Shown here piece after piece: positions 59,427 through 60,194 of a stretch of 64,000 nucleotides of DNA. Where the stretch lies: the NCBI RefSeq assembly GCF_036507355.1, contig NZ_AP027877.1; one strand, written 5' to 3'. The DNA comes from Escherichia coli. Lineage in GTDB: Bacteria; Pseudomonadota; Gammaproteobacteria; Enterobacterales; Enterobacteriaceae. The position numbers were made by a program, and so were the translations under genes. The notes beneath the pieces were generated by a model. It was given only the letters and a program-made list of their open reading frames with translations. It was not told where the DNA came from and ran no database searches. Within the stretch, counting starts at the first letter, position 1; each line of letters opens with the position of its first letter.

Positions 59427-59441
59427 GGTAATGACTCCAAC

Positions 59442-59945
59442 TTATTGATAGTGTTTTATGTTCAGATAATGCCCGATGACTTTGTCATGCAGCTCCACCG
59501 ATTTTGAGAACGACAGCGACTTCCGTCCCAGCCGTGCCAGGTGCTGCCTCAGATTCAGGTTATGCCGCTCAATTCGCTGCGTATATCGCTTGCTGATTAC
59601 GTGCAGCTTTCCCTTCAGGCGGGATTCATACAGCGGCCAGCCATCCGTCATCCATATCACCACGTCAAAGGGTGACAGCAGGCTCATAAGACGCCCCAGC
59701 GTCGCCATAGTGCGTTCACCGAATACGTGCGCAACAACCGTCTTCCGGAGCCTGTCATACGCGTAAAACAGCCAGCGCTGGCGCGATTTAGCCCCGACAT
59801 AGCCCCACTGTTCGTCCATTTCCGCGCAGACGATGACGTCACTGCCCGGCTGTATGCGCGAGGTTACCGACTGCGGCCTGAGTTTTTTAAGTGACGTAAA
59901 ATCGTGTTGAGGCCAACGCCCATAATGCGGGCTGTTGCCCGGCAT
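59442..59945 (-). CDS. insB: IS1 InsB
   Basis: ORF track 167 aa, identical to the copy-1 InsB. Confidence 0.93.
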
Positions 59946-60139
59946 CCAACGCCATTCATGGCCATATCAATGATTTTCTGGTGCGTACCGGGTTGAGAAG
60001 CGGTGTAAGTGAACTGCAGTTGCCATGTTTTACGACAGTGAGAGCAGAGATAGCGCTGATGTCCGGCGGTGCTTTTGCCGTTACGCACCACCCCGTCAGT
60101 AGCTGAACAGGAGGGACAGCTGATAGAAACAGAAGCCAC
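59864..60139 (-). CDS. insA: IS1 InsA
   Basis: ORF track 91 aa, identical to the copy-1 InsA. Confidence 0.93.
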
Positions 60140-60194
60140 TGGAGCACCTCAAAAACACCATCATACACTAAATCAGTAAGTTGGCAGCATCACC

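Follow-up and report, generated by a model that had tools for sequence, protein, structure and literature searches.

OI-47 of Escherichia coli O157:H7 strain EDL933 is an accessory island of 31,727 bp that extends from z1528 to z1556 and carries vmpA/pdeT (z1528) and grvA (z1531) (PMC8565820, PMC4287979, PMC4076661, PMC10877973). The vmpA/pdeT gene is located immediately downstream of ycdT (PMC4287979), and genes of the island have been connected with motility, biofilm, LEE regulation and acid resistance in O157:H7 (PMC4076661, PMC8565820, PMC10877973). Reduced forms of the island have also been described. In K-12 MG1655, the gene order is dgcT-IS3D-ymdE'-ycdU (PMC4951805), and the loss continues through the island into a malonyltransferase gene, of which the last 303 bp are left as ymdE, a FabD-like pseudogene. 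Strain RM13514 (O145:H28) retains 26.6% of OI-47 (PMC3893438), and in our comparison it keeps about a quarter of the interval that is missing from the locus described below.

The 64-kb window (the whole stretch of E. coli DNA that was analysed) carries an eroded copy of an OI-47-type accessory island between dgcT (ycdT) and ycdU/serX (Table 1). As in EDL933, pdeT directly follows dgcT, the chromosomal site is the same, and the retained genes stand in the same order. These retained parts are 97-99% identical at the DNA level to those of O55:H7, O157:H7 and other carriers. However, the full set of genes corresponding to z1528-z1556, which includes pdeT, grvA, a fimbrial operon, an FHA pair, and an operon for biosynthesis and export, is not present. 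What the window retains of the island amounts to 1,195 nt from the start of pdeT and ~7.3 kb from the far end, with ~25 kb absent from the middle and with a second IS1 insertion (copy 1) nearby. In terms of genes, it comprises a 5' fragment of pdeT together with the export, FabD and ycdU genes at the distal end, and the locus is an island remnant only. The dgcT gene at its border is intact in the window and is annotated as frameshifted and split in O55:H7 strain CB9615 (L024 8693..9870).

In the OI-47-type island of NZ_OZ197100.1 (hereafter L001), the operon occupies 21790..36583 and runs in the order acpS, SDR, FabZ/ApeI-like, ACP, GcvT-like aminomethyltransferase, double ketosynthase, ketosynthase and hypothetical gene, which are followed by the LolD-like ATPase, the 218-aa protein, the LolE/MacB-like permease, the LolA-like protein, the 462-aa protein, the FabD-like protein and ycdU. 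This arrangement resembles a system that both makes and exports a lipid or polyketide, and no description of its product was found in the literature searched. Positions 52252..59426 of the window are the remnant of this operon. The 218-aa, 462-aa, LolA-like and YcdU proteins had no match among NCBIfam families. The permease protein is identical in several draft genomes that carry intact islands and that are only ~99.2% identical in DNA sequence.

Table 1. Features of the eroded island and its borders, in window coordinates.
Feature	Position	Strand	Remarks
serX, tRNA-Ser(GGA)	51972..52059	plus	island border, ycdU side
ycdU	52252..53238	minus	distal island end, kept
FabD-like ACP S-malonyltransferase	53235..54179	minus	remnant in K-12 is ymdE
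Hypothetical protein, 462 aa	54190..55578	minus	distal island end, kept
LolA-like 'outer membrane lipoprotein-sorting protein' gene (Pfam TP_0789-like)	55575..57140	minus	split by copy 1
IS1 copy 1	56243..57010 (768 bp)	plus, opposite to copy 2	simple insertion
LolE/MacB-type ABC permease, intact	57149..58459	minus	between the inverted IS1 copies
Hypothetical protein, 218 aa	58460..59116	minus	between the inverted IS1 copies
LolD-like ABC transporter ATPase, 3' remnant	59100..59426	minus	residues 128-235 of 235 aa (last 108 codons)
IS1 copy 2	59427..60194 (768 bp)	minus (insA/insB')	IRR end 59427, IRL end 60194
pdeT/vmpA (CSS-domain c-di-GMP phosphodiesterase), 5' remnant	60195..61389	minus	residues 1-398 of 536 aa
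dgcT (ycdT), intact diguanylate cyclase (452 aa)	61487..62845	minus	island border, pdeT side

Both insertion elements have the characteristics of IS1, including a length of 768 bp, imperfect terminal inverted repeats of ~23 bp (GGTGATGCTGCCAACTTACTGAT / GGTAATGACTCCAACTTATTGAT), and intact frames for insA (a 91-aa ORF) and insB (a 167-aa ORF). The A6C motif for programmed -1 frameshifting, AAAAAAC, is present at IS1 position 307 of each copy. Matching database sequences are annotated as 'IS1 family transposase, programmed frameshift', and thousands of genomes carry the sequence of copy 2 under the annotation 'IS1-like element IS1A family transposase'. Copy 2 begins with GGTAATGACTCC (IRR) and ends with GGCAGCATCACC (IRL), and the 9-mers that flank it are TTCAGTGGC and CATTTTTAA. 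A scan for a target duplication around it (k = 6-14, offsets 0-3, with at most one mismatch) found none. Thus, a preliminary reading of the DNA from its letters alone (the sequence-only reading), which had placed an IS1 here in opposite orientation to copy 1 and with non-matching flanks, holds to the exact ends of the element. The 9-bp direct duplication that a simple insertion of IS1 leaves is present at copy 1 and lacking at copy 2; its absence bears on the origin of the junction and not on the identity of the element. Copy 2 is the marker of a deletion junction.

Each end of copy 2 abuts a truncated gene. Window position 59426 corresponds to position 30186 of L001, within the ATPase coding sequence (29805..30512). 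The ATPase remnant has lost Walker A (GPSGSGKS, residues 47-54) and the Q-loop and has kept LSGGQ (residue 152) and Walker B (VVIADEPT, residues 171-178), in agreement with the earlier description of an ATPase that lacks its Walker A half. At the opposite end, position 60195 corresponds to L001 position 5389, within the pdeT coding sequence (4195..5805). The Pfam domains of PdeT are CSS (64-222) and EAL (291-523), and 46% of the EAL domain remains, with the 54% that is lost including DDFGTG (439-444). The sequence-only reading had described an EAL gene without its C-terminal half, which is correct for the EAL domain but overstates the loss for the whole gene, from which the last 26% is gone. 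The truncated pdeT reading frame extends to 60190, where it ends at a TGA supplied by the end of IS1.

Comparison with genomes in which both genes are full-length gives the size and identity of the lost DNA. The distance between the two breakpoints is 24,796 bp in L001 and, in O55:H7 CB9615, 25,388 bp (1323162..1348549 of its record), and the remainder of the 64-kb window is colinear with CB9615 except for the two IS1 copies and a small indel between flgF and flgG. The missing DNA spans pdeT codon 399 to ATPase codon 127. From the pdeT side, it starts with the last 416 nt of pdeT and a hypothetical gene, which is adjoined in CB9615 by a winged-helix gene that we take to be grvA; in strain XJ34 this pair is annotated as winged-helix and FidL. 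Next are an SDR gene, a chaperone-usher fimbrial operon, and a two-partner secretion pair of the FHA/FhaC type. These are followed by the biosynthetic head of the fatty-acid/polyketide-like operon, with acpS, SDR, FabZ, ACP and GcvT-like aminomethyltransferase genes and with genes for two ketosynthases (a double one of 852 aa and one of 407 aa) and a hypothetical protein of 317 aa, and finally by 381 nt from the start of the ATPase gene. The suggestion that the lost DNA might include the biosynthetic start of the operon is therefore borne out.

Among the complete E. coli genomes that carry any of the missing DNA, 378 of 414 have it in one piece, defined as at least 80% of it being contiguous. 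In genomes without the IS, the flanks of copy 2 are not contiguous, and the DNA that separates them there is absent from the window, as is characteristic of an IS-mediated deletion; no fragments of the missing 25 kb were found elsewhere in the 64-kb window. In none of the genomes examined do the ATPase and EAL fragments adjoin naturally, and neither this comparison nor the duplication scan contradicts the original proposal of an IS1-associated deletion, arising either by adjacent deletion or by recombination between IS copies. We consider it very probable that an IS1-associated deletion of about 25 kb created the junction.

The route that we favor, and regard as probable, is a single IS1 insertion followed by an adjacent deletion. 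An IS1 would first have entered at either of the present junctions, and its transposase would then have carried out an intramolecular transposition into a site ~25 kb away. The intervening DNA would have been deleted while the IS1 was kept, leaving one old and one new flank, and this would explain why copy 2 has no duplication. Reif and Saedler reportedly observed in 1975 that IS1 promotes RecA-independent adjacent deletions that start exactly at the end of the element. The junction resembles the classic adjacent deletions of gal and R plasmids in that IS1 is kept, the deletion runs from its exact terminus, and no duplication is present; likewise, tens of kilobases are gone and two genes are truncated at once. 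It differs in that the mechanism is here inferred from its product, and homologous recombination between two IS1 copies yields the same product.

Indeed, a single sequence cannot separate these two routes because both leave one IS1 with unrelated flanks. In the second route, IS1 would have inserted twice in the same orientation, once in pdeT and once in the ATPase gene, and RecA-dependent recombination would have excised the 25 kb as a circle, leaving one hybrid IS1 with exact ends. IS1 does accumulate in this island, both here, where copy 1 is only 2.4 kb away, and in other strains such as XJ34 and SCU-316. However, this route needs three events rather than two, none of them observed, and an IS1 at either deletion site (pdeT or ATPase) was seen in 0 of 5,426 complete E. 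coli genomes. Copy 2 also shows no positive evidence of being chimeric. For these reasons we judge the two-insertion route possible but distinctly less likely, and we favor adjacent deletion because it requires the fewer unobserved events.

No precursor of the deletion, whether carrying IS1 at one site with a duplication or IS1 at both sites, was found among the 5,426 genomes, and two candidates were set aside. One contig (L011) ends inside the ATPase gene, but it extends 68 nt past the breakpoint and thus reflects only a contig break. In XJ34, the FHA gene carries a simple IS1 insertion with the duplication CAAGTGAAG; this IS1 is in the opposite orientation and is a 91% variant.

An assembly error is an improbable source of the junction. 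IS1 is a 768-bp multicopy repeat that often cannot be spanned in short-read assemblies, so two direct copies might have been collapsed and the 25 kb between them dropped. The junction was also seen only in the assembly at hand. When each IS1 copy was searched with 200 bp of flanking DNA on either side, no match of at least 80% coverage was found for either junction in the 5,426 complete E. coli genomes, and exact junction sequences of 38-40 nt had no match in GTDB representative genomes or JGI metagenomes. For the truncated PdeT (taken from either of two possible starts), the fragment of the LolA-like protein and the 462-aa protein, no exact match is on record, and a 65-aa fragment of the ATPase matched only short, noisy contigs unrelated to the junction. 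Thus, the junction rests on one assembly because it was not found in the other public assemblies searched. However, the contiguous 64 kb resolves two IS1 copies that are 2.4 kb apart and differ by a single base, which argues that repeats were resolved. Moreover, a dropped interval is not represented by any piece within the window, and comparable real deletions exist in finished genomes.

Copy 1 is a separate and ordinary IS1 insertion that occurred before or after the deletion, 2.4 kb from copy 2. It is surrounded by a perfect 9-bp duplication, TATTCGGCG, at 56234..56242 and 57011..57019, and on L001 its two flanks share exactly 9 bp (32593..32601). It splits the LolA-like gene at about codon 41-44 into a 5' part (57011..57140) and a 3' part (55575..56242). 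The sequence-only reading had called the two IS1 copies identical, which is not quite so. They match at 767 of 768 positions. The sole difference is at IS1 position 486, where copy 1 has G (56728) and copy 2 has T (59709), a synonymous change in insB; the repeat finder's value of '100%' is a rounding of 767/768.

When copy 1 and one copy of its duplication are removed, 52000..59426 gives a gapless 6,650-nt alignment to intact islands. The 2.4-kb segment between the IS1 copies (57011..59426) is thus in its native orientation, with no inversion in the assembled sequence, because the duplication at copy 1 is intact and the alignment is colinear and gapless. Inversion of this segment in some cells, by recombination of the inverted repeats that match at 767 of 768 positions, is a theoretical possibility, and, with the operon already nonfunctional, its effects, if any, would not be obvious.

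The same observations leave very little room for the proposal that a rearrangement between the inverted IS1 copies, rather than a deletion, is the cause of the missing duplication. Closely matching inverted copies do flank the 2.4-kb segment, and IS1-flanked composite transposons with inverted copies, such as Tn1681, are known. Nonetheless, this is the least credible of the explanations considered: any inversion would break the duplication at copy 1, which is perfect and direct; under duplicative inversion, the outer flank of copy 1 (TATTCGGCG) should be the inner flank of copy 2 (TTCAGTGGC) read as its reverse complement (GCCACTGAA), and it is not; and the outer flanks TATTCGGCG and CATTTTTAA differ, so the unit was not inserted in one piece. 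The pair is not surrounded as a whole by one duplication, nor is its interior foreign, since the segment is colinear, natively oriented island DNA. Simple inversion, duplicative inversion and composite-transposon insertion are each excluded for the assembled sequence by the duplication at copy 1 or by the absence of the expected flank relationships.

The deletion in the window is one more independent case in which IS elements have eroded the island between dgcT and ycdU, together with the IS3D case in K-12 and an IS1 case in SCU-316. The K-12 loss is like that in the window in that it is bordered by an IS, affects the same island, and leaves a truncated gene beside the IS (PMC4951805). In contrast, it involves IS3D, has other end points, and is larger, extending to all of pdeT. 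In SCU-316 (NZ_CP054371.1, L028 19715..20482), an IS1 again lacks a duplication and has the same orientation relative to the island, and its flanks are 12,149 bp apart in CB9615, which marks an independent deletion. Unlike copy 2, this IS1 is a variant with 91% identity, and the end points lie in the FHA gene and upstream of grvA. The SDR gene, the fimbrial operon and most of the FHA gene were lost there, whereas pdeT and the biosynthetic operon were kept.

A further reduced form of the island is found in NCTC9064 (NZ_LR134315.1, L027 7819..8999). Here, truncated copies of ycdU and of a winged-helix (grvA-like) gene abut one another directly, and no IS lies between them. Nearly the whole island has been deleted in this case, without an IS. 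In the same strain, IS200C and two RtT sRNA annotations adjoin serX.

Judged by domain content, the truncated PdeT would be catalytically dead, and the lipid-like operon would be left without biosynthesis and export. All biosynthetic genes and the transporter ATPase would have been lost from the operon, where the LolA-like gene is also split, and GrvA, the fimbriae and the FHA-like adhesin would no longer be encoded. This would leave as orphans the permease, the proteins of 218 and 462 aa, the FabD-like gene and ycdU, all of which survive. Consequently, the strain is to be scored negative for PdeT/VmpA, GrvA, the OI-47 fimbriae, the FHA-like adhesin and the lipid-like product of the island.

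Read-through among pdeT', IS1 insAB' and the remnant operon is conceivable because all three are on the minus strand. Scans for promoters and terminators around the junctions gave nothing above shuffled expectation except the known promoter-like site in the IRL of IS1. The truncated PdeT retains its CSS sensor, its transmembrane region and half an EAL domain, and it is co-oriented with IS1 and the remnant operon. It might be proposed that this protein is kept as a non-catalytic regulator or drives read-through, or that the IS1 pair and the 2.4 kb between them form an invertible or mobilisable composite with an orphan LolE-type permease. We consider these ideas very improbable, and they are supported by no observation. 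The deletion is an ordinary, textbook example of IS-mediated reductive evolution in an island that has already been described, and it is known in kind. Thus, it has little import beyond the annotation of this strain, and it is mildly useful where OI-47 genes serve as lineage markers.

Among the 5,426 complete RefSeq genomes of E. coli, the closest to the window are 99.1% identical over 20-25 kb of core genes (15100..40000 and 36000..56242), and the top matches are of the O145:H28 / O157:H7 / O55:H7 lineage; the source lineage of the window thus has no representative in that collection. The core (15047..56242) is 99.0% identical to CB9615. On the pdeT/dgcT side (60195..64000), identity is 99.7% to XJ34 and 97.2% to CB9615, and in the island remnant identity to L001 is 97.6% for 57011..58010 and 99.5% for 58427..59426. 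Because this pattern of identity is mosaic, it suggests that homologous recombination might have occurred across the locus in the past.

Elsewhere in the 64 kb, the ORFs of the flg and csg (curli) genes show no apparent disruption, and no IS element other than the two IS1 copies is present. Shigella had been considered as the source in view of the IS1 copies and the distance to complete E. coli genomes, but these features speak against a typical Shigella, and that origin is unsupported. The intergenic stretch between flgF and flgG (14922..15046) is 125 bp long compared with 92 bp in CB9615, and the two versions are not alignable; the difference may be one of REP-type elements. The serX tRNA gene is an integration hotspot right beside the eroding island. 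It is unoccupied in the window, whereas several draft genomes have a P4-type integrase island at this site (L004/L005/L007 15798..17000), and a large aerobactin/cah island is located at serX in O145:H28 RM13514 (L026).
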